Part shown: positions 3,439 through 55,517 of the stretch, in pieces
Layout: every line of letters starts with the position of its first letter
Position numbering within the stretch: position 1 is the first letter of the stretch
Source of the DNA: Candidatus Pacebacteria bacterium UBA6180
GTDB taxonomy: Bacteria; Patescibacteriota; Microgenomatia; UBA1400; PJMF01
Length of the DNA stretch: 64,000 bases
NCBI GenBank assembly: GCA_002422165.1
Contig: DITQ01000002.1
Span: forward strand, 13,174-77,173
Reading direction: 5' to 3'
The notes under the pieces: generated by a model
The model's input: only the letters and a program-made list of their open reading frames with translations
Databases searched by the model: none
What the model was told of the DNA's origin: nothing
Translations under genes and position numbers: made by a program

Positions 3439-5808
3439 TTAGTTACGGTTGCCGTAGTTCACCAAATTTGGCTCGTAAATTACTTTACCCTCTTCATCTT
3501 GAGGACGGTTGCAGTCAGCGCAGTAAAGCTTGGTTAGCGGATCGTAGTAGAAACTGTGCTCCTCAAGCTGTAGATCATCAGCTTCTTCACCTTCTTGAGG
3601 TGGTAAGCCGGTCGAAGCTCTGATCCAGTATTCTTTACGAAAAGTTCCAGAATAGCTAGGCAGTGAGGCTTCCCAGTAGAGTTCTTGGCGAGTGTCAGCG
3701 CAGCTTGCTGCCGGATCAGTTTCAGTGTTGAAAAAGTCAGTGGTATTGTCTCCATCGCCAATGACTAGCTTTCCCAAGCCCGCCTGCGCTGGCATGCCAG
3801 TTAGGCAAACGCTGGCGATTTTGACATCGCTTGGGCGCTCTGGCCAGACGGTTTCCTGGTCTTGGAGCACATAGCTCATTATGTCGTTCCAGATCGGCGC
3901 TGCTCCAGTGATGCCAGATGCTAGATAGCTCATCGAGGTGCTATCATTGTTGCCCACCCAAGTCATAGTTAAGAACTCAGGGGTGTATCCGATGGTCCAG
4001 TTATCGCGCAAATCATTGGTGGTGCCAGTTTTGGCCGAGACGATTTTATTTCGAATAACCAAGCTAGAATTGCTGCCAAAGGCTGCTTGGCGCGCGCTGT
4101 TATCTTGGAGGATGTGATTAGTGAGGTAGGCTGGCGCGCGCGCCATCACTCTCCGCAGCGAGCCGAGTTCGTTGATGGCTTCATCCTCGCTCATTGTAGC
4201 TAGGTTTTGAGTCGTGGCTTGACTGTCATAACTCTCGAGAACTTCGCCGCGGAAATTACTAATCTCCAAGATGCCAGTCAAAGGCACATGCACACCTTGG
4301 TTGGCAAGAACGCCAAAAGCCTCTGCCAATTCGACCATTCTGATCTCACCGCCTCCAAGGGTGAGGGAGAGACCGTAATTAGCTGGATTGGTCCAAGTAT
4401 TTATACCCATGGCCCGAGCTTGATTGATGAATTTCTCGACGCCAATTGTTGCCAAGGCTTTGACAGCGGGAATATTGAGCGAGTTGCCAAGCGACTGGCG
4501 AATAGTGACGGGACCAGAGAAGCCACCGGTGTAATTTTTCGGACAATAATCGCGTTGACCGGCGACGCGGAAACATGTAGGAATATCGAGTAAAATGGTT
4601 CCTGGATTGATGGTTTTTTCGGCCATAGCAGTGGCGTACATTATTGGTTTAATTGAAGAACCTGGTTGGCGTAGCGCCAGGGTGACATTGACCTGACCAT
4701 CGCTTTGGCTATCGAAGTAATCTTTGGAGCCAATCATGGCCAGAATTTCGCCGGTGTTAGGTTTGGTAACGAGAGCTGCACCATTACTAACCTTCAGTCG
4801 CTCCAAAGTTTTGAGTTCTGCTGCCAGTGAGGCTTGAGCGGTTTCCTGTAGGTCTAGGTCTAGAGTGGTGGTGACCCGTAAACCGCCAGTTTCGACCATT
4901 TCTTCGCCATATTTTTCGTAGAGTAAATCGCGGATGTAGAAGACGAAATGAGGGGCTCTGATGTCAGTGCGAGAAATGGCATATTCTAGTACTTCTGCTT
5001 CAGCGCGCTCGGCTGTGGCTTCATCAATATATTTATCTTCAACCATGCGGCGCAAAACTTCTTTTTGACGATTTTTAGCCCGTTCAGGATTAGAGCCAAA
5101 CGGTGAGTAAGTAGTGGGAGATTGTGGTAAGCCAGCCAGCAAAGCCGCTTCGGCTAGGTCAAGTTCGCTAGCGGACTTGGCGAAATATTTGTTGGCAGCG
5201 GCTTCGATGCCGACCGCAGTGCCTCCATAAGAAATGTAATTGAGGTACATTTCCAGAATTTCCTCTTTACTGTAAAGCACTTCTGTCATCACCGCCAAAA
5301 CTGCTTCTTTGATTTTGCGCTGGAGAGTTTTTTCCTTGCTGAGCAGGGCGTTTTTGACGAGTTGCTGAGTGATGGTTGAGCCGCCCTGGACTGTGTTCCC
5401 GCTGAAGTTTTTGAAACCAGCTCGCAGTAAACCGCGCAAGTCTAGGCCATGATGGCGGTAGAAACTTTTGTCTTCGATGGCAATGGTGGCTTGCAAAACG
5501 TGCTCTGGTAGATCGCCAATTTTGATGGGGATGCGGTTTTCTTGACCATAAATTTCGTAGAGTAATTGGCCATGGCGGTCAAAAATCTGCGTACTGACGG
5601 GAAAATTTTCAGTTGAAGTTAAATTGCTTGGAGAGGGTAATTGTTTGTAGAGGTAGATAATAAAAATGATCAAGCTTAGGCCAAGTAAACCTAGTCCAGT
5701 TTGGAGCGAGCGACTTCTGCGTAGTCTGGCCCAAAAAAATTTTCGACTGCGATTGCGAATTCGCCTTGATTTAAGTTGCTTTTTGGTGGCGAGACGAAAA
5801 GGGTTCAT
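3439..5808 (-). CDS. Class A penicillin-binding protein (PBP1A-type bifunctional transglycosylase/transpeptidase)
   Basis: Basic N-terminus + TM helix; GT51 motifs (EDKSFYRHHG, QGGSTITQQLVKN); transpeptidase SxxK-type region (GSSIKP), KTGT motif. Confidence 0.85.
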   Translation of the reverse strand: MNPFRLATKKQLKSRRIRNRSRKFFWARLRRSRSLQTGLGLLGLSLIIFIIYLYKQLPSPSNLTSTENFPVSTQIFDRHGQLLYEIYGQENRIPIKIGDLPEHVLQATIAIEDKSFYRHHGLDLRGLLRAGFKNFSGNTVQGGSTITQQLVKNALLSKEKTLQRKIKEAVLAVMTEVLYSKEEILEMYLNYISYGGTAVGIEAAANKYFAKSASELDLAEAALLAGLPQSPTTYSPFGSNPERAKNRQKEVLRRMVEDKYIDEATAERAEAEVLEYAISRTDIRAPHFVFYIRDLLYEKYGEEMVETGGLRVTTTLDLDLQETAQASLAAELKTLERLKVSNGAALVTKPNTGEILAMIGSKDYFDSQSDGQVNVTLALRQPGSSIKPIMYATAMAEKTINPGTILLDIPTCFRVAGQRDYCPKNYTGGFSGPVTIRQSLGNSLNIPAVKALATIGVEKFINQARAMGINTWTNPANYGLSLTLGGGEIRMVELAEAFGVLANQGVHVPLTGILEISNFRGEVLESYDSQATTQNLATMSEDEAINELGSLRRVMARAPAYLTNHILQDNSARQAAFGSNSSLVIRNKIVSAKTGTTNDLRDNWTIGYTPEFLTMTWVGNNDSTSMSYLASGITGAAPIWNDIMSYVLQDQETVWPERPSDVKIASVCLTGMPAQAGLGKLVIGDGDNTTDFFNTETDPAASCADTRQELYWEASLPSYSGTFRKEYWIRASTGLPPQEGEEADDLQLEEHSFYYDPLTKLYCADCNRPQDEEGKVIYEPNLVNYGNRN

Positions 5809-11210: not shown

Positions 11211-11573
11211 ATGGTGCAATCGGTAGAGGCAACTACAAAACAGATGAGTCATGAACTAATGGCTTATGTTATTAAAAAAGAGTTAACTGATAAATTTGGC
11301 AGTATTGGAGGAGCTTCTGCCGCTAATTCTATGGCTCGTGCATTAGAGCTATATATAAGTGCTCGTACATTAGAGAGGCAATTGGCTGATGTACCTGAAG
11401 ATGAACGCCCAGATCCTTCTGGGAAAAAATCTAAAGCCGAATTGCTAAAAGAGCTAAAAGCTGGCATTGTTGAAACAGGTTACGACTTTAATGGTTTAAA
11501 TAAAAAATTTGGACAGTACATTGACGGTGACTTGACAAAAATTGGCAGAATTATTTCTGGCATAGCCGAATAA
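11211..11573 (+). CDS. Hypothetical small protein, AT-rich gene (about 38% GC)
   Basis: 120-aa ORF between nrdJ and PBP gene; no motifs; composition differs from flanking genes. Confidence 0.35.
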   Translation: MVQSVEATTKQMSHELMAYVIKKELTDKFGSIGGASAANSMARALELYISARTLERQLADVPEDERPDPSGKKSKAELLKELKAGIVETGYDFNGLNKKFGQYIDGDLTKIGRIISGIAE

Positions 11574-11606: not shown

Positions 11607-14063
11607 ATGGCAGTCAAGAAAAATTCTTCTAGTCCCAAAAAAATTCGAGGCAAACTGCAAAAAAATGTTTTGGTCGCTACCAAAGTTACTAAAGAAGCGC
11701 CAAAATTTAAGCGCGGTCGGCCCAAGTTGCCACTAAGAATTAGATTGGCTCGCAGCTTCAAAAAAAAATTAACTAAGCTTCATAAAAAATCCAAAAAAAC
11801 ACAAAAAAAATGGCTAGAGCAATATTTTATTCTCTTGCGAGTGTTGCAGATTAAGAGAGGGCGAGGTCGACCGACTTTGCCAGCTACAACTAAACTGAAG
11901 CGTTTTTTTTCTGCCGTCAGCAGTAGCGTCAGCAAAAGCAAACAAAAATTTAACCGTCGCCGATTGTCAGCGGCGCTGTTTCTGCAACGTTTCTTCCGCT
12001 TGCGCAGGAAAGTTGGCCGGCCCAAGAAAAAAGGTTCGTGGTTACCTTTGGCAAGCTCCTTACTTTTCACCATTTTATTTTTGGCTTTTGCTTATTTGGT
12101 TTACGATGTTGGCATCAAAGATCTACCACAAGCCACTGATTTGTCTAGCAAGGCCCAAAACGTCACCACTCGCATTTTGGACCGCAATGGCAAACTTTTG
12201 TTTCGCATCTATGAAGACGAAAATCGCACCCTCATTCCGCTAGCTGAGGTTTCCACCTACCTGCGGGATGCGACCGTCGCCATCGAAGACCAAAATTTTT
12301 ATAAACACCACGGCTTTTCCTTGCGGGGGATTTTTCGCGCTGCCTGGAAGAATTTCTCTAACCAAACTGTTCAGGGCGGCTCAACCATCACTCAGCAGTT
12401 AGTCAAAAATCGCTTACTTAACAATGAAAAAACCTACCGTCGCAAATTACGCGAGTTGCTCCTATCGCTTCTAGTGGAGCGTATTTACACAAAAGAGCAA
12501 ATTTTGGAAATGTACCTTAACACCGTCGCTTACGGTGGTTCGACTTACGGTATCGAAGAAACATCTTGGCGTTATTTCAATAAATCAGCCAGCGATCTGA
12601 GCCTAGCAGAAGCAGCCTTAATTGCTGGCTTGCCACAAGCGCCCTCGACCTACACGCCTTTTGGTGCTAATCCAGAATTAGCTTACGCACGTCAGGCAGA
12701 AGTTCTGCGCCGCATGGTGGAAGATGGCTATATCAGTCAGCTCCAGGCTGATCAAGCCAAGCAAGAGAAGTTGATTTTCAACCAAGATCGCATCGACATC
12801 CAAGCTCCCCACTTCGTCATGTACGTGCGCAAAATTTTAGCTGAGCGCTACGGTGAAGATGTCCTCGCTAAGGGCGGCCTGGAAGTGCGGACCACTCTGG
12901 ACCTAGATTTGCAAAACTTGGCTCAGGAAATTGTCAGTACTGAAATCGCCAAGCTTGCTAACTTCAAAATCACTAATGGTGCAGCCTTGGTAACCAATCC
13001 TAAAACGGGAGAAATTCTTGCCATGGTCGGTGGAGCCAATTATTTCGATTTTGCCCATGATGGTCAGGTTAACGTTACCACTCGACCACGCCAACCAGGT
13101 TCGTCAATCAAGCCGTTGACTTACGCTTTGGCTCTAGAGCGGGGCAAAACAACTGCTTCAGTTATTGACGATTCGCCAGTGGTTTACCAGATTGCTGGCA
13201 GCAAACCCTATGCTCCAGTGAATTATGATGGGCGTTTCCGTGGATCCGTGACTTTGCGTGAGGCTTTGGCTTCATCCTACAATATTCCCGCGGTCAAACT
13301 GCTCGCCGAACTGGGAGTTAACGATCTTATCGATCAAGGTGAAGCAATGGGTATTACCACTTGGCAAGATCGGCGCCGCTTCGGTTTATCCCTGACTCTA
13401 GGTGGCGGCGAGGTTTTGATGACTGACATGGCCAAGCTTTACAGCACTTTTGCCAATTTAGGCTATCCAGTCGGCGTCAATCCTTTTTTGGAAGTAACTA
13501 ATTACAAAGGGGAAGTGCTTTATCGCAATCACTGTGCTCTCGATCAAACTAATTGTTACGAGGAGCCAGCACTCAGTCCAAAGACTGCTTATCTAATCAC
13601 TGATATCCTAGCTGACAATCGCGCCCGCACGCCGGCTTTTGGGGCTTTTTCTGTCCTTAATATTCCAGGGCAAGAGGTAGCGGTCAAAACTGGCACTACT
13701 AACAGTATGAAAGACAATTGGACGATTGGTTACACTACTAACCGTTTGGTTGCTACTTGGGTTGGAAATAACGATAACACGCCGATGAGTTACGTTGCTT
13801 CTGGTATTACTGGTGCTTCTCCAATTTGGAACAAAATTATGCTATCCATGTTAGACGCTGATAACCCACACCTGTTTACGGTGCCAGCCAACATGATTAA
13901 GGTTAAGATCTGTGCCACAACGGGGACCTTGCCTTGCAGTGATTGTCCAAGTGTGGTCGAAGAATTGTTTGTAGAGGGGACAGAGCCGACTAAGGCTTGC
14001 AGTGAGGTTAATTTTGTGCCCCTCCCTGATACGGCCGAACCAAGGAGAGGGCAAGTTTTGTAG
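11607..14063 (+). CDS. Class A penicillin-binding protein (PBP1A-type) with ~150-aa lysine/arginine-rich cytoplasmic N-terminal tail carrying three AT-hook-like GRP motifs
   Basis: GT51 motifs (EDQNFYKHHG, QGGSTITQQLVKN), transpeptidase motifs (GSSIKP, KTGT); N-terminal tail contains KRGRPKLP, KRGRGRPTLP, KVGRPKKKG before the TM helix. Confidence 0.85.
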   Translation: MAVKKNSSSPKKIRGKLQKNVLVATKVTKEAPKFKRGRPKLPLRIRLARSFKKKLTKLHKKSKKTQKKWLEQYFILLRVLQIKRGRGRPTLPATTKLKRFFSAVSSSVSKSKQKFNRRRLSAALFLQRFFRLRRKVGRPKKKGSWLPLASSLLFTILFLAFAYLVYDVGIKDLPQATDLSSKAQNVTTRILDRNGKLLFRIYEDENRTLIPLAEVSTYLRDATVAIEDQNFYKHHGFSLRGIFRAAWKNFSNQTVQGGSTITQQLVKNRLLNNEKTYRRKLRELLLSLLVERIYTKEQILEMYLNTVAYGGSTYGIEETSWRYFNKSASDLSLAEAALIAGLPQAPSTYTPFGANPELAYARQAEVLRRMVEDGYISQLQADQAKQEKLIFNQDRIDIQAPHFVMYVRKILAERYGEDVLAKGGLEVRTTLDLDLQNLAQEIVSTEIAKLANFKITNGAALVTNPKTGEILAMVGGANYFDFAHDGQVNVTTRPRQPGSSIKPLTYALALERGKTTASVIDDSPVVYQIAGSKPYAPVNYDGRFRGSVTLREALASSYNIPAVKLLAELGVNDLIDQGEAMGITTWQDRRRFGLSLTLGGGEVLMTDMAKLYSTFANLGYPVGVNPFLEVTNYKGEVLYRNHCALDQTNCYEEPALSPKTAYLITDILADNRARTPAFGAFSVLNIPGQEVAVKTGTTNSMKDNWTIGYTTNRLVATWVGNNDNTPMSYVASGITGASPIWNKIMLSMLDADNPHLFTVPANMIKVKICATTGTLPCSDCPSVVEELFVEGTEPTKACSEVNFVPLPDTAEPRRGQVL

Positions 14064-14109: not shown

Positions 14110-14970
14110 ATGTCAAAAGAATCTTTAGAAGGATGGAGACGTTTTAATGTAAATGAAAGCTCACTTTCAGCCAGAGTTATGCATAGAGTTGTAGCTATGG
14201 TGCATCCTGACAGATATCCACAATTCCAGCGACTAATGCTTCTAATGCGAGCTATAGACAACCTCGTTGACGAAGGCAATAGTTTTGAAGAAGCAAAAAA
14301 ACTAATTAAAGAACAATGGATAGCGTTGAGTAAAATGTCGAAATTCGAAAATTTGTCTTCCGACCTTAGTTTTTTAGGAACAGAACTTAATGCCTTGGTA
14401 AATGGGATTCACGACAAAGATTTAAAATTGAATTTTATAAAGCACTACCAAAAATTACTTTTTTATTACTATCTAGATTTGCTTCATCGGAAACACGCTA
14501 AACCTTATAGAGAGGATCGTTTAACTAAGCACAGGGAAGGAGGCTTTTACCACCTTTTTGGTGCTATCAAAATTCTCTTGCGAGATAGTGACTTGGAGAA
14601 GTCGAACTTTAAGGATTTAATGGATGCATGGGCAGAAGCGGAGCCACTAGATGATATAGAGGAAGATTTGCCCGTTGGACTAGTTCTGTACAGCCCTAAA
14701 GATGGGGCTGATTGGGTAAAAAATCTTAAAAAACATGAAGCAGTAAATATTAAGGAGATTGATGCATTCGTCAGGAAAATTCGTTGGCAATTGTCAAGAG
14801 GATTGTTGAATAGTTTTATGGCTGGTTACCAAGAATTTGGTGGGATAGTAGGTTTACTTATGTCACTTGATTTTGCAAAAAGAGGAGTATTTCTTCTTAC
14901 AAAAAGATTCCAGCCAAAAGAAGAAGTTGTTTTTGCTAGTAAAAGTTTTAGCAATAATCTAGAAAATTAG
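14110..14970 (+). CDS. Squalene/phytoene synthase-like (trans-isoprenyl diphosphate synthase, head-to-head) family protein, AT-rich gene
   Basis: Two Asp-rich motifs in the positions expected for SQS/PSY fold: MRAIDNLVDEG (DxxxD) and DDIEEDLPVG..Y.P (cf. DVGED..GR.YLP); about 38% GC versus about 50% in neighbours; -10-like TAGAAT 7 nt before ATG. Confidence 0.35.
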   Translation: MSKESLEGWRRFNVNESSLSARVMHRVVAMVHPDRYPQFQRLMLLMRAIDNLVDEGNSFEEAKKLIKEQWIALSKMSKFENLSSDLSFLGTELNALVNGIHDKDLKLNFIKHYQKLLFYYYLDLLHRKHAKPYREDRLTKHREGGFYHLFGAIKILLRDSDLEKSNFKDLMDAWAEAEPLDDIEEDLPVGLVLYSPKDGADWVKNLKKHEAVNIKEIDAFVRKIRWQLSRGLLNSFMAGYQEFGGIVGLLMSLDFAKRGVFLLTKRFQPKEEVVFASKSFSNNLEN

Positions 14971-53180: not shown

Positions 53181-55517
53181 ATGTCTTATCCCAAGTATGG
53201 AAATACTTATAAGAAAGATCTCGTCGTGGGCGATAAAGTCATCCAGATCGAGGTTGGCAAATTTAGTGAGCAGGTTTCCGCTGCAGTCCTCGCCACTTGT
53301 GGCGAAACAGTGGTTCATACCACCGTCGCTCTCGGCCGCAAAGTCAACCTCGGCTACTTCCCCCTCTCGGTGGAATTTGCTGAAAAACTCTATGCCGGTG
53401 GCATTATCAAAGGTTCACGCTGGGTCAAGCGCGATGGTCGTCCGACTGATAACTCCATCCTGCGTGGTCGCGTGATCGATCGCACCATGCGCCCGCTGTT
53501 TCCTGACGGCATCACCAATGAAGTCCAGATCATCAGCACTGTTTTCTCCTACGATGGTGAAAATGAGCCTGATATGATCGCCCTGGTCAGCGCCGCTCTG
53601 GCCTTGCAAATTTCTGACATTCCTTTTGACGGTCCAGTCGCTGGCATGCGCCTGGGTCTTGACGAAAAAGGTGAGTTTTTGATCAATCCTACCCGCAGTC
53701 AAATCGAGAGCAACGATCTCGACCTGATCGTGTCGGCTTCCAAAAATTCGATCGTCATGGTCGAAGCTGGCGCCAAAGAAGTCGCCGAAGAGGTAATGAT
53801 CGAGGCTCTGCTCCGCGCTCAAGCAGAAGGCGCCAAGGTCTGTGAGCAGATCGAAAAAATTGCCGCTGAAATCGGCAAAGCCAAGGTTGAATTAGTCGAT
53901 GCCGTTGACCCAGAAGTCGCTGCCAAGAAGCAAGTTCTAGTTGCACGTCTCGCCAGTACTTACCAAAAAGAAATCAGCGATATGGTCAATAAGCAAGGCC
54001 GTCTCGAGCCTTTCGGCTTGGACGAGTTGATTGCCAAGATTTTAGAGGAAGATAAAGCCAAACTCGCTGAAGGCGAGGAAAGCGAACTCAGCGAAGGCAT
54101 GCTCCACAGCATTTTCCACGACTTGATGAAAGACGAAGCTCGCCGCATGATCATCGAAGACGAAGTTCGTCCTGATGGTCGCAAGACTACCGAAATCAGA
54201 CCGATTTGGTGCGAAGTTGACTTGCTGCCTCGCGTCCATGGTTCGGCCATGTTCAAGCGCGGAGCCACTCAAGCTCTAACAGTGGTGACTCTAGGTGACC
54301 CATCTCTTGGTCAGCTAATCGAAGACATGGCGGGTGAGAAAACCCACCACTACTTCCATCACTACAACATGCCGCCTTACGCTTCTGGTGAAGCTGGTCG
54401 CTTCGGTTTCCCCAAGCGCCGCGAAATCGGTCACGGGGCGCTCGCTCAGCGCGCTATCGAGCCGATGTTGCCTAGCCAAGAAGAGTTTCCTTACACTATC
54501 CACGCGGTGAGCGAAATCATGAGCTCCAATGGCTCGACTTCCCAGGCTTCGGTTTGTGGTTCGACCATGGCCTTGATGGCTGCCGGTGTCCCACTCAAGA
54601 AGCCAGTGGCTGGTATCGCCATGGGCCTGATGTCGGATGGTGAGAAATTTGTCATCCTTTCAGATATCCAGGGCTTGGAAGATCACGTCGGTGACATGGA
54701 CTTCAAAGTCGCGGGTACTAAAGAAGGCATTACCGCTATCCAGATGGACATCAAGCTCAAAGGCATTCCCAAGGAAGTCTTAGTTAAGGCTCTTGGTCAG
54801 GCTCGCGAAGGCCGTTTACACATCATGGCAGAAATGATGAAGTGCATCAGCGAACCTCGTACTTCCCTGAGTCCTTATGCGCCAAAGGTTGCTCAGATGA
54901 CTATTCCTGCTGAGAAAATCGGCGGCGTCATCGGCTCTGGTGGCAGCGTGATCAAGGACATCATCGAGAAGTCAGGTGCTGAAGTCAACGTCGACGAAGA
55001 CAAAGAGAAAAAGATCGGCATCATCAACGTTTCTTCGCCAGACCAAGCCGCGATCGATAAGGCTATGCAGATGATCGAAAACATCGTCCGCGAAGTCGAG
55101 ATCGACGATGAGTTTGACGGCATCGTCACTCGCGTCGAAGGCTACGGCATGTTTGTCGAATTCCTACCAGGCCGCGAAGGTTTGGTCCACGTCTCCAACA
55201 TGTCCAGCGACTACGTCAAGGACGCCAATGACCTCTACAAGGTCGGCGACAGCGTTCACGTCCGCGTCAAAGAATACAATCCAGAAGGCAAAATTGCCCT
55301 AACCATGCTTAGTAGTGAGCAAGAGGCTGAGCAAAAAGCCGCCCGAGCTTCTCGCGGCGAAAGCGACGATAATGGTCGTGGTGGCCGCGGCGGTGATCGC
55401 GGTGGCTACGGCGGCGGCAGACCTTCCTACGGTGGCCGCGGAGGCAGTCGTGGTGGAGACCGCAATGAGCGACGCCCCTTTGGTGGACGCGGTAATGGTG
55501 GAGGAAGAAGGTTTTAA
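53181..55517 (+). CDS. pnp: Polynucleotide phosphorylase with about 60-aa Arg/Gly-rich (RGG/GGR/YGG) C-terminal tail
   Basis: Two RNase PH domains, KH and S1 domains; tail RGESDDNGRGGRGGDRGGYGGGRPSYGGRGGSRGGDRNERRPFGGRGNGGGRRF. Confidence 0.95.
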   Translation: MSYPKYGNTYKKDLVVGDKVIQIEVGKFSEQVSAAVLATCGETVVHTTVALGRKVNLGYFPLSVEFAEKLYAGGIIKGSRWVKRDGRPTDNSILRGRVIDRTMRPLFPDGITNEVQIISTVFSYDGENEPDMIALVSAALALQISDIPFDGPVAGMRLGLDEKGEFLINPTRSQIESNDLDLIVSASKNSIVMVEAGAKEVAEEVMIEALLRAQAEGAKVCEQIEKIAAEIGKAKVELVDAVDPEVAAKKQVLVARLASTYQKEISDMVNKQGRLEPFGLDELIAKILEEDKAKLAEGEESELSEGMLHSIFHDLMKDEARRMIIEDEVRPDGRKTTEIRPIWCEVDLLPRVHGSAMFKRGATQALTVVTLGDPSLGQLIEDMAGEKTHHYFHHYNMPPYASGEAGRFGFPKRREIGHGALAQRAIEPMLPSQEEFPYTIHAVSEIMSSNGSTSQASVCGSTMALMAAGVPLKKPVAGIAMGLMSDGEKFVILSDIQGLEDHVGDMDFKVAGTKEGITAIQMDIKLKGIPKEVLVKALGQAREGRLHIMAEMMKCISEPRTSLSPYAPKVAQMTIPAEKIGGVIGSGGSVIKDIIEKSGAEVNVDEDKEKKIGIINVSSPDQAAIDKAMQMIENIVREVEIDDEFDGIVTRVEGYGMFVEFLPGREGLVHVSNMSSDYVKDANDLYKVGDSVHVRVKEYNPEGKIALTMLSSEQEAEQKAARASRGESDDNGRGGRGGDRGGYGGGRPSYGGRGGSRGGDRNERRPFGGRGNGGGRRF

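Follow-up and report, generated by a model that had tools for sequence, protein, structure and literature searches.

A conserved cytoplasmic repeat module with three AT-hook-like motifs on a class A PBP of the 'Pacebacteria'-type lineage

The tailed class A PBP and its locus

The window, i.e. the whole stretch of DNA that was analysed, comprises 64 kb at a GC content of 45%; the genome is not especially AT-rich. The following features belong to the PBP under study and to a paralogue that served for internal comparison:

11607..14063, plus strand: class A PBP bearing the tail, 818 aa (Transgly and Transpeptidase matches, TIGR02074 score)
11607..12050, plus strand: cytoplasmic N-terminal tail, aa 1-148, net charge +48 (composition; start MAVKKN... 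conserved in orthologues)
12039..12116, plus strand: TM anchor helix, aa 145-170 (AF2 helix and hydrophobic sequence WLPLASSLLFTILFLAFAYLVY)
12189..12716, plus strand: Transgly (PF00912) glycosyltransferase domain, aa 195-370 (E 6.9e-63)
12978..13841, plus strand: Transpeptidase (PF00905) domain, aa 458-745 (E 1.8e-24)
3439..5808, minus strand: paralogous class A PBP, 789 aa (short basic tail, no GRP)

The product of the 818-aa ORF is a class A PBP of the PBP1A family. Its TIGR02074 PBP_1a score of 522.6 bits exceeds the curated cut-off of 508.75, the SxxK-type string GSSIKP fits an acyl-serine transpeptidase, and a single N-terminal membrane anchor (approximately aa 145-170, a predicted helix) precedes the glycosyltransferase domain. 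A Pfam scan of the protein returned no domains beyond Transgly and Transpeptidase and no other DNA-binding domain. The initial annotation had described a paralogous class A PBP whose cytoplasmic extension is long and rich in K and R, and the domains, the TIGR02074 score and the 148-aa tail bear this out. The tail contains 31 K, 19 R, 0 D and 2 E, and the three GRP strings previously quoted from it are all present: KRGRPKLP at aa 35-42, KRGRGRPTLP at aa 83-92 and KVGRPKKKG at aa 135-143.

From the TM helix onward the paralogue is 49% identical to the tailed PBP. It had been noted for a shorter basic tail without GRP, and this tail indeed comprises only about 40 aa; the GRP module is absent here and in the orthologues of the paralogue from six related genomes (seven genomes in total). 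The two ORFs that flank the tailed PBP (120 aa and 286 aa) had no Pfam match and were not conserved at syntenic loci, and the neighbours were therefore dropped as an operon clue. The synteny of RNR and cmk around the locus is conserved and is uninformative on the tail.

When the tail was shuffled 200,000 times with its composition preserved, at least one GRP tripeptide arose by chance with P = 0.04 and at least three with P = 5e-6. The latter value, together with the conservation described below, rules out a chance or compositional origin of the hooks. Among stop-to-stop ORFs of at least 80 aa in all six frames of the 64 kb, two other GRP tripeptides were found in real genes, both in a 778-aa ORF (53181..55517), and antisense artefacts added two more. 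The codon strings GGTCGACC and GGCCGGCC, which encode G-R-P, are self-complementary, and a spurious antisense ORF results from this; the self-complementarity explains nothing more. A palindrome at the DNA level was ruled out by synonymous codon variation among the orthologues.

Repeat architecture and conservation of the tail

The tail is laid out as hook 1, a 37-residue helix, hook 2, a second 37-residue helix, hook 3 and the TM helix, with these features:

11703..11852, plus strand: repeat unit 1 (hook 1 and helix 1), aa 33-82 (profile comparison with unit 2)
11703..11729, plus strand: hook 1, KFKRGRPKL, aa 33-41 (R36, G37, R38 and P39 invariant in 35 orthologues; AF2 coil)
11733..11843, plus strand: helix 1, predicted 37-residue cationic amphipathic helix, aa 43-79 (AF2 pLDDT >90; hydrophobic stripe)
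11853..12002, plus strand: repeat unit 2 (hook 2 and helix 2), aa 83-132 (profile comparison with unit 1)
11850..11879, plus strand: hook 2, IKRGRGRPTL, aa 82-91 (G87 and R88 invariant in 35 orthologues)
11883..11993, plus strand: helix 2, predicted 37-residue cationic amphipathic helix, aa 93-129 (AF2 and conserved stripe)
12003..12035, plus strand: hook 3, RRKVGRPKKKG, aa 133-143, adjoining the membrane (G137, R138 and P139 invariant)

The hooks sit at residues 37, 87 and 137, in exact steps of 50 residues. Comparison of the profiles of units 1 and 2 by hhalign covered all 50 columns with a probability of 98.4% and an E value of 8.6e-15, and by this measure the two units are homologous 50-aa repeats; hook 3 has only its hook of about 11 aa in common with them. 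The tail goes beyond the picture given in the initial annotation in that it is not a simple disordered basic region but a tandem 50-aa repeat composed of hooks and predicted 37-residue amphipathic helices. A Tat or signal-peptide reading of hook 3 was dropped, as the pattern S/T-R-R-x-F-L-K is absent.

AF2 placed all three hooks in coil (approximately aa 20-42, 80-92 and 130-144) between confidently predicted helices, the pLDDT of the coils being below that of the helices. Both helices carry a conserved hydrophobic stripe with a periodicity peak at 100 degrees. In 18-residue windows the hydrophobic moment reaches 0.4-0.57 at approximately aa 43-66, 94-102 and 121-126 and falls to 0.1-0.25 near the ends of the helices; aromatic residues are abundant on the hydrophobic faces. 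The conservation of the stripe indicates that a hydrophobic partner is needed, which would be the membrane surface or another helix. Tertiary packing in the AF2 tail model is not confident (pTM 0.35), and a Foldseek search of this model against the PDB gave no match. Designed helical-repeat proteins (7rmx_A, E 9.5e-5), in which L-G-D-P loops join the helices, gave a weak match to the tail profile.

Comparison of the GRP repeats among orthologues, which had been named as a test that could overturn the initial annotation, was carried out and the motifs proved to be kept. Three hooks are present in 65 of 116 analysable homologues, and the distance from hook 1 to hook 2 is 50 aa in all 65 three-unit proteins (65/65). 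In 35 orthologues with 21-59% identity over the aligned N-terminal region (the tail, the TM helix and about 15 residues past it) R36/G37/R38/P39, G87/R88 and G137/R138/P139 are invariant. None of the invariant hook arginines is replaced by Lys in any orthologue (0/35); elsewhere in the tail K and R swap freely, and the positions flanking the hooks are K or R in mostly 70-100% of the orthologues. Position 89 of hook 2 is P in 18/35 orthologues and K or R in the rest (e.g. RGRKK), and in hook 3 V often replaces the first R of RGRP. This strict conservation of the motifs rules out unconserved low complexity.

The codons of the hook arginines differ synonymously between orthologues; since the third positions vary, it is the protein sequence, not the DNA, that is under selection. 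In more than 60 homologues the amino-acid sequence of the N-terminus and of the entire repeat architecture is likewise conserved while the codons change synonymously. With the invariant Arg-Gly-Arg(-Pro) cores, the Arg never exchanged for Lys, the fixed spacing of hooks 1 and 2 and the retained hydrophobic stripe, the tail module is shown to be under protein-level purifying selection. A further 51 related PBPs contain [KR]GRP 22 times in their tails against 0.3 expected (approximately 70-fold enriched), and GRP in related tails was observed 36 times against 1.35 expected from composition (approximately 27-fold). In more distant orthologues the tail is also long and K/R-rich but lacks GRP.

Crude ORF calling in related genomes gave about 280,000 aa, the PBPs among them, and no basic-GRP-basic motif was found in any ORF other than the PBPs. 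In a search of 1.84 billion representatives with the tail profile, the short matches were N-terminal fragments of the same PBPs only; of the longer matches five of nine were inspected and were multi-copy KRGRPRK repeat proteins that resemble eukaryotic AT-hook proteins and aligned via the hook. A word-indexed profile search with the tail yielded two matches, with K-rich sequences swamping the result. Judged from these searches, the module is confined to the 'Pacebacteria'-type PBP lineage.

Possible functions of the tail

An AT-hook is defined by a G-R-P core that is flanked by basic residues (PMC4615771), and KRGRPKL, KRGRGRPTL and KVGRPKKK all have this core and basic flanks. They also resemble the Reeves consensus TPKRPRGRPKK (PMC11354804) and the validated bacterial hook of WhiB7, KRPRGRPRK (PMC6282962). 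Agreement with the definition, the predicted coil and the strict conservation support the AT-hook-like character that the initial annotation had assigned to the motifs, but the Pfam model AT_hook (PF02178) did not match the tail or 24-aa hook peptides at E<=10. This model is insensitive and does not settle the matter, as the HMGA1 sequence used as a positive control also remained below the cut-off, at 16.2 versus 17.4 bits. In view of K for P in hook 2 and V for R in hook 3, some hooks are not fully canonical. DNA binding by the hooks is what we infer from these sequence features. AT-hook hosts are DNA- or chromatin-associated and often possess a second DNA-binding domain; the host here is an enzyme of the membrane, for which AT-hooks have no known precedent.

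Our tentative proposal, plausible though far from secure, is that this conserved, lineage-specific tail module represents a membrane-anchored AT-hook array that would tether one of the class A PBPs to the nucleoid. The three hooks would act as canonical AT-hooks, the extended RGR(P) segments of which insert into the minor groove of DNA; structured RNA is a possible alternative ligand. The cationic amphipathic helices would rest on the anionic inner leaflet or pair with each other and, like a ruler, space the hooks by approximately 5.5 nm. The outcome would be a multivalent, membrane-anchored nucleic-acid tether of low specificity that holds the tailed PBP, one of two, near the nucleoid. Its function would be akin to DNA-membrane bridging of the Noc type, but located inside the synthase itself, and it could bias the place or the timing of peptidoglycan synthesis by this PBP in an ultra-small cell. 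The hydrophobic stripe, which DNA binding does not require and which suggests that the partner is a membrane or a protein, speaks against such a tether. The GC content of the window, the membrane-enzyme host, the missing match to the insensitive AT_hook model, the lack of a second DNA-binding domain, the rigid predicted linkers and the departure of some hooks from the canonical form are also counted against it. Whether a tether via three AT-hooks at fixed distance amounts to a new, direct nucleoid-synthase coupling, possibly in place of spatial control of the Noc, SlmA or Min type, is more doubtful.

The RGRP cores could instead be short linear motifs that a cytoskeletal protein or an adaptor in the cytoplasm recognises (DivIVA/GpsB-like, FtsA, MreB, FtsZ), a reading that we regard as rather unlikely but serious. 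Three copies on rigid helices would then provide multivalent docking to a polymer or oligomer and localise the PBP to the division or elongation site. A direct precedent is given by Firmicutes, in which class A PBPs have cytoplasmic mini-domains for GpsB binding, whose conserved arginines near the membrane enter an acidic groove (PMC6335420), and an arginine-specific protein motif explains the same invariance. The strict conservation of Arg, not Lys, would fit a specific pocket and the exact 50-aa spacing a periodic partner, and the restriction of the tail to one of two paralogues is as in GpsB-regulated PBPs. However, K/R-R-G-R-P-K/R differs from the motif by which PBP tails bind GpsB, SRxxR(R/K) (PMC6335420), and the 148-aa tail is devoid of any [ST]R; no partner was identified, the flanking genes are not conserved, and a net charge of +48 far exceeds the need of a docking motif.

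The hydrophobic stripe with its helical periodicity would equally be expected if the helices formed a folded or self-associating element, either an antiparallel hairpin of helix 1 and helix 2 or a bundle between PBPs, with GRP mainly as cap or loop connector. Gly and Pro are classic residues of helix C-caps and N1 positions; the weak profile match to designed helical repeats points in the same direction. That the module serves oligomerisation or as a rigid stalk, and not DNA binding, nevertheless appears improbable to us. A loop role leaves the invariant arginines that flank the Gly and the basic flanks unexplained, and with about 13 residues the predicted coils are no tight loops of 3 residues. 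The periodicity peak lies at 100 degrees instead of the 103 degrees of coiled coils, and neither the pTM of the AF2 model nor the Foldseek search favours a defined packing.

Net charge, the hydrophobic moments across much of the helices, the aromatic-rich faces and the long K/R-rich tails without GRP in more distant orthologues would all be compatible with a generic polycationic binder of the membrane surface. The helices would lie on anionic lipids and GRP would act as helix breaker without a specific ligand, the tail as a whole serving as a positive-inside anchor or as a sensor of curvature or lipid domains. We consider this improbable, too: electrostatics would allow K/R exchange and indels, but the hook arginines are invariant, the spacing is exact, and GRP exceeds its compositional expectation in related tails approximately 27-fold. 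A chance or annotation artefact, with the upstream region untranslated and the true start near the TM helix, is hardly credible, as nothing more than the low-complexity look of the sequence suggests it, whereas an internal Met before the TM helix is absent and the conservation with synonymous changes in more than 60 homologues and the shuffle P value contradict it.

The three-hook tail has not been described previously for class A PBPs, and a literature search for a link of AT-hooks with PBPs or Patescibacteria gave no relevant result. The cytoplasmic tail of class A PBPs is increasingly recognised as a handle for positioning wall synthesis, e.g. by GpsB in Firmicutes, and the organisation of growth and division in Patescibacteria/CPR is almost unknown and cultivation is difficult. 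A conserved, multivalent AT-hook-like array on one class A PBP paralogue leads to the testable hypothesis that wall synthesis is coupled to the chromosome or to a scaffold or other partner in the cytoplasm. In the first case the AT-hook would be extended to the context of an integral-membrane enzyme; if the hooks bind protein instead, the module would be a new PBP-localisation motif.

Comparison with known systems

The tailed PBP has in common with the GpsB-binding class A PBPs of Firmicutes (PMC6335420) a conserved arginine motif in a membrane-near N-terminal tail of one paralogue, plausibly for localisation. The GpsB-binding motif, SRxxR(R/K), is helical and occurs in a single copy in tails of approximately 20-30 aa, whereas three RGRP hooks in predicted coil are found here in a 148-aa repeat. 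A membrane-proximal (S/T)RxxR(R/K) does not occur in this tail, as S or T is nowhere followed by R.

The nucleoid occlusion protein Noc recruits DNA to the membrane (PMC4331003, PMC8429893). In concept the two systems are alike, as each combines one or more membrane amphipathic helices with a DNA-binding element, here a putative one, and would influence envelope synthesis. Noc, however, is a soluble ParB-family CTPase with a sequence-specific HTH, while the tailed PBP has a TM anchor, is itself the synthase and would bind DNA non-specifically. The Pfam scan revealed no ParB-like HTH or CTPase domain in the tailed PBP, and the resemblance to Noc is functional only.

The string GRGRPRK, found in orthologues of the tailed PBP, is also present in hook 1 of HMGA1. 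Like HMGA1 (PF02178/SM00384) and WhiB7/WblC, the tail shows an R-G-R-P core, K/R flanks and several copies per protein, and its hooks are predicted to be extended and non-helical as in canonical AT-hooks. Unlike canonical AT-hook proteins, the PBP is a membrane-anchored extracytoplasmic enzyme without another DNA-binding domain, and hook 2 of its orthologues often reads RGRKK. The flexible linkers of HMGA are replaced by predicted rigid 37-residue amphipathic helices that part the hooks at a 50-aa spacing. In the extended AT-hook, basic residues are located 12-15 residues from the core, in contrast to the PBP tail, where they directly flank it as in the canonical type. With the extended, RNA-binding AT-hooks (PMC4615771) the tail shares a GRP core in a very basic context, and RNA rather than DNA could therefore be its ligand.

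The two class A PBPs and the composition of the tail

The tailed PBP is a class A penicillin-binding protein, and every defining feature was present when checked. It scores 522.6 bits against the NCBIfam model TIGR02074 ('PBP1A family'), above the curated cut-off of 508.75, and its named homologues are Patescibacteria carrying the labels 'Candidatus Pacebacteria', Paceibacterota and Microgenomates. The GC content of the window is 45%.

11607..14063 (+): tailed PBP, 818 aa (ORF call)
aa 195-370: GT51 transglycosylase domain of the tailed PBP (E 6.9e-63)
aa 458-745: transpeptidase domain of the tailed PBP (E 1.8e-24)
3439..5808 (-): paralogue, second class A PBP
aa 35-42: hook 1, KRGRPKLP
aa 83-92: hook 2, KRGRGRPTLP
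aa 135-143: hook 3, KVGRPKKKG, followed by the hydrophobic anchor

From the membrane anchor on, the two PBPs are 49% identical; their tails are without similarity. The initial annotation had described three basic GRP strings in a K/R-rich cytoplasmic extension, all of which match its quotation exactly, and a shorter basic tail without GRP on the other PBP1A. The latter likewise holds: the paralogue has ~40 basic residues ahead of its TM helix and no GRP, and GRP is absent from the second PBP in all six genomes that yielded both paralogues (loci L063, L065, L070, L071, L073 and L077).

The tail of 148 aa contains 31 K, 19 R, 2 E and no D (net charge +48). The glycines of its G-R-P cores are located at residues 37, 87 and 137, a spacing of exactly 50. 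Composition-preserving shuffling of the tail, repeated 200,000 times, gave P = 5e-6 for three GRP and P = 0.04 for a single one. As background, ORFs were called crudely in the window and in 78 related genome loci (~280,000 aa, PBPs included); outside the PBPs this set held 30 GRP occurrences and no basic-GRP-basic string. In related PBP tails, GRP is ~27-fold more frequent than their composition predicts.

Since the G-R-P codons GGN-CGN-CCN are self-complementary, GRP can also be read in the antisense frame; GGTCGACC and GGCCGGCC are palindromes (11865-11873 and 12015-12023), and the antisense ORF 11780..12073 (-), 97 aa, with 'GRP' motifs of its own, is spurious. Another enzyme of housekeeping type in this genome also has an extension rich in arginine and glycine: the 778-aa ORF 53181..55517 (+), which by eye we take to resemble polynucleotide phosphorylase (PNPase), ends in an RGG/RG-rich tail of ~50 aa (GRGGRGGDRGGYGGGRPSYGGRGGSRGGDRNERRPFGGRGNGGGRRF).

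Repeat units and predicted helices

In a profile-profile comparison (hhalign probability 98.4%, E 8.6e-15), residues 33-82 and 83-132 are homologous units of 50 aa that align over all 50 columns. With the third unit they have only the hook of ~11 residues in common; beyond its hook, the third unit passes into the TM helix. An AlphaFold2 run on an alignment of 35 sequences (mean pLDDT 83, pTM 0.35) predicted the following elements.

aa ~20-42, 80-92 and 130-144: predicted coil, corresponding to the hook regions
aa 43-79 and 93-129: predicted single long helices, 37 residues each (pLDDT >90)
aa 145-170: predicted TM helix

At 1.5 Å per residue, a helix of 37 residues measures ~5.5 nm. In each helix, hydrophobic positions line up across orthologues as one unbroken stripe; F, W and Y are frequent on this face, and the others are K/R-rich. 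Hydrophobic periodicity has a sharp maximum at 100 degrees per residue, with values of 0.145 and 0.136 for the two helices; it is 0.10 at 103 degrees and does not exceed 0.06 at the remaining test angles (80-180 degrees). In 18-residue windows, the hydrophobic moment is 0.4-0.57 at roughly aa 43-66, 94-102 and 121-126 and falls to 0.1-0.25 near the helix ends; the charge of such helix windows is +3 to +10. Together, the homologous units and the striped helices give a predicted layout in which three hooks alternate with two rigid cationic amphipathic helices, the last hook leading into the TM helix, and they rule out a featureless disordered basic region. Tertiary packing cannot be claimed because pTM is low and Foldseek found no match to the predicted structure in the PDB.

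Conservation and distribution of the tail

The initial annotation had made its proposal dependent on conservation of the GRP repeats, and the repeats proved conserved in orthologues. Among 116 homologues analysed out of the best 120 (42-100% identity), 65 keep the three-unit layout; hooks 1 and 2 are 50 residues apart in all 65, and hooks 2 and 3 are separated by 50 residues in 49, 52 in 11 and 49 in 5. In an alignment of 35 orthologues, 21-59% identical to the query over the N-terminal region (tail, TM helix and ~15 residues beyond), there is no variation at R36-G37-R38-P39, G87-R88 and G137-R138-P139, and K/R accounts for 70-100% of residues at most flanking positions. Lysine never takes the place of a hook arginine; elsewhere in the tail K and R exchange freely. 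The proline of hook 2 often gives way to K or R (RGRKK/RGRRK), and V or R precedes the glycine of hook 3. Hook codons differ at third positions between orthologous loci (GGT/GGC/GGA/GGG, CGN/AGA, CCN), so it is the peptide that is under selection, and a DNA palindrome as the selected feature is ruled out.

The other 51 homologues have differently arranged tails (median 191 aa). [KR]GRP is present in 22 of them; the shuffling expectation is 0.3, and the highest count in 2,000 shuffles was 3. Many contain a variant unit, 'TRGRKKLPxxxRxQRW'. The motif is therefore recurrent and selected in this PBP lineage, which rules out drifting low complexity. At the protein level the tail is a strongly constrained module: its cores are specific for arginine, its geometry is fixed and its helices are amphipathic.

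Across the 78 loci, which come from species representatives in GTDB, only members of the closest clade have the three-unit tail (62-75% identity; L001-L009, L021, L036, L050 and L055, with L003 being the complete genome CP011212.1). In L011 of the same clade, which is truncated by the contig, two hooks are visible. Many GTDB-representative MAG records with this clearly patescibacterial locus (L006, L007, L010, L011 and others) are titled 'uncultured Pseudomonadales/Gammaproteobacteria bacterium', and CP011212.1 'candidate division TM6'; the titles are probably mislabelled taxonomy. More distant syntenic orthologues, also beside cmk, have long K/R-rich tails. These are of Microgenomates type and mostly without GRP; the tails of L012, L015, L019 and L020 and of the homologous proteins P0067, P0071, P0085 and P0094 measure ~130-330 aa and are unrelated in sequence. 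Long polycationic tails thus seem general in the PBP lineage, the hook repeat being one solution. The tail of L016 (BOKX01000001.1; P0119) has three RRGRP at residues 26, 33 and 61 and no 50-aa repeat, which suggests independent gain or rearrangement of the same motif.

Gene order is conserved, with RNR upstream and cmk downstream of the tailed PBP. Two further ORFs flank it.

11211..11573 (+): 120 aa, no Pfam match
14110..14970 (+): 286 aa, no Pfam match

Both are missing from related syntenic RNR-PBP-cmk loci; only in L001 does anything match the 120-aa ORF, and weakly. They look like lineage-specific insertions, so the neighbourhood provides no functional clue.

A HMMER search with the tail profile against 1.84 billion representative proteins, where representatives of 50%-identity clusters mask the clade's full-length PBPs, gave 14 matches, of which the ten shortest were read. 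Five of these ten were short N-terminal fragments of the tailed PBPs; the other five, matched via the hook itself, contain KRGRPRK/RGRGRPK repeated in multiple copies and resemble eukaryotic AT-hook proteins. The 50-aa unit was thus not seen on other protein families among the ten.

Relation to AT-hooks and possible function

AT-hooks are defined by basic residues flanking a G-R-P core, and some canonical ones also bind RNA (PMC4615771). The tail motif fits this definition. It also agrees with TPKRPRGRPKK, the consensus first drawn up for AT-hooks (PMC11354804), and with KRPRGRPRK of bacterial WhiB7, a validated hook that binds the AT-rich minor groove (PMC6282962); in sequence, the hook of the 50-aa unit is equivalent to bona fide AT-hooks. 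The tail had no match at E ≤10 to the Pfam AT-hook profile, a test of little power, as an HMGA1 control scored 16.2 bits, under the cut-off of 17.4. Definition, conservation and a predicted extended conformation agree with an AT-hook, but the usual DNA-associated protein context is absent from the tailed PBP; our term for the motifs is accordingly 'AT-hook-type by sequence', short of a demonstrated DNA-binding domain.

We tentatively favour a model in which the hooks would bind nucleic acid, by default the DNA minor groove, and the cationic amphipathic helices would lie on the anionic membrane surface or pair together, spacing the hooks. Hooks and helices would then form a multivalent tether of the tailed PBP to the nucleoid. 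It is rather unlikely that the hooks instead dock the PBP to a cytoplasmic adaptor or polymer in an arginine-specific manner. Conserved membrane-proximal arginines of Firmicutes aPBP tails, which bind GpsB (PMC6335420), are a precedent, but the motif here differs from the GpsB type, as [ST]R does not occur in the tail, and no partner was identified. A helical hairpin or bundle with G-x-P as loop or cap appears doubtful: such a stalk would agree with the hydrophobic stripe and with the weakly matching profiles of designed helical repeats that are joined by LGDP connectors, but leaves the invariant arginines and the 13-residue coils unexplained. Summed, adaptor docking and a structural stalk are about as likely as the AT-hook tether. 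We are as sceptical of a generic polycationic membrane-binding region as of the hairpin or bundle; it fits charge and amphipathicity and is at odds with the Arg-not-Lys invariance, the exact spacing and the GRP enrichment. An artefact or untranslated region can practically be dismissed, as amino-acid-level conservation alongside synonymous codon change excludes it.

The tail module is real, clade-wide and cleanly defined, in a poorly understood bacterial group. Known aPBP tail biology comprises GpsB motifs and extracytoplasmic disordered regions, and full-text literature searches that paired AT-hooks with penicillin-binding protein or Patescibacteria brought up no relevant paper. The tailed PBP is a known enzyme with a previously undescribed conserved cytoplasmic repeat, assembled from a known motif type. 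Without being homologous to it, the proposed AT-hook tether would be a functional analogue of Noc, which bridges DNA and membrane via an amphipathic helix (PMC4331003).
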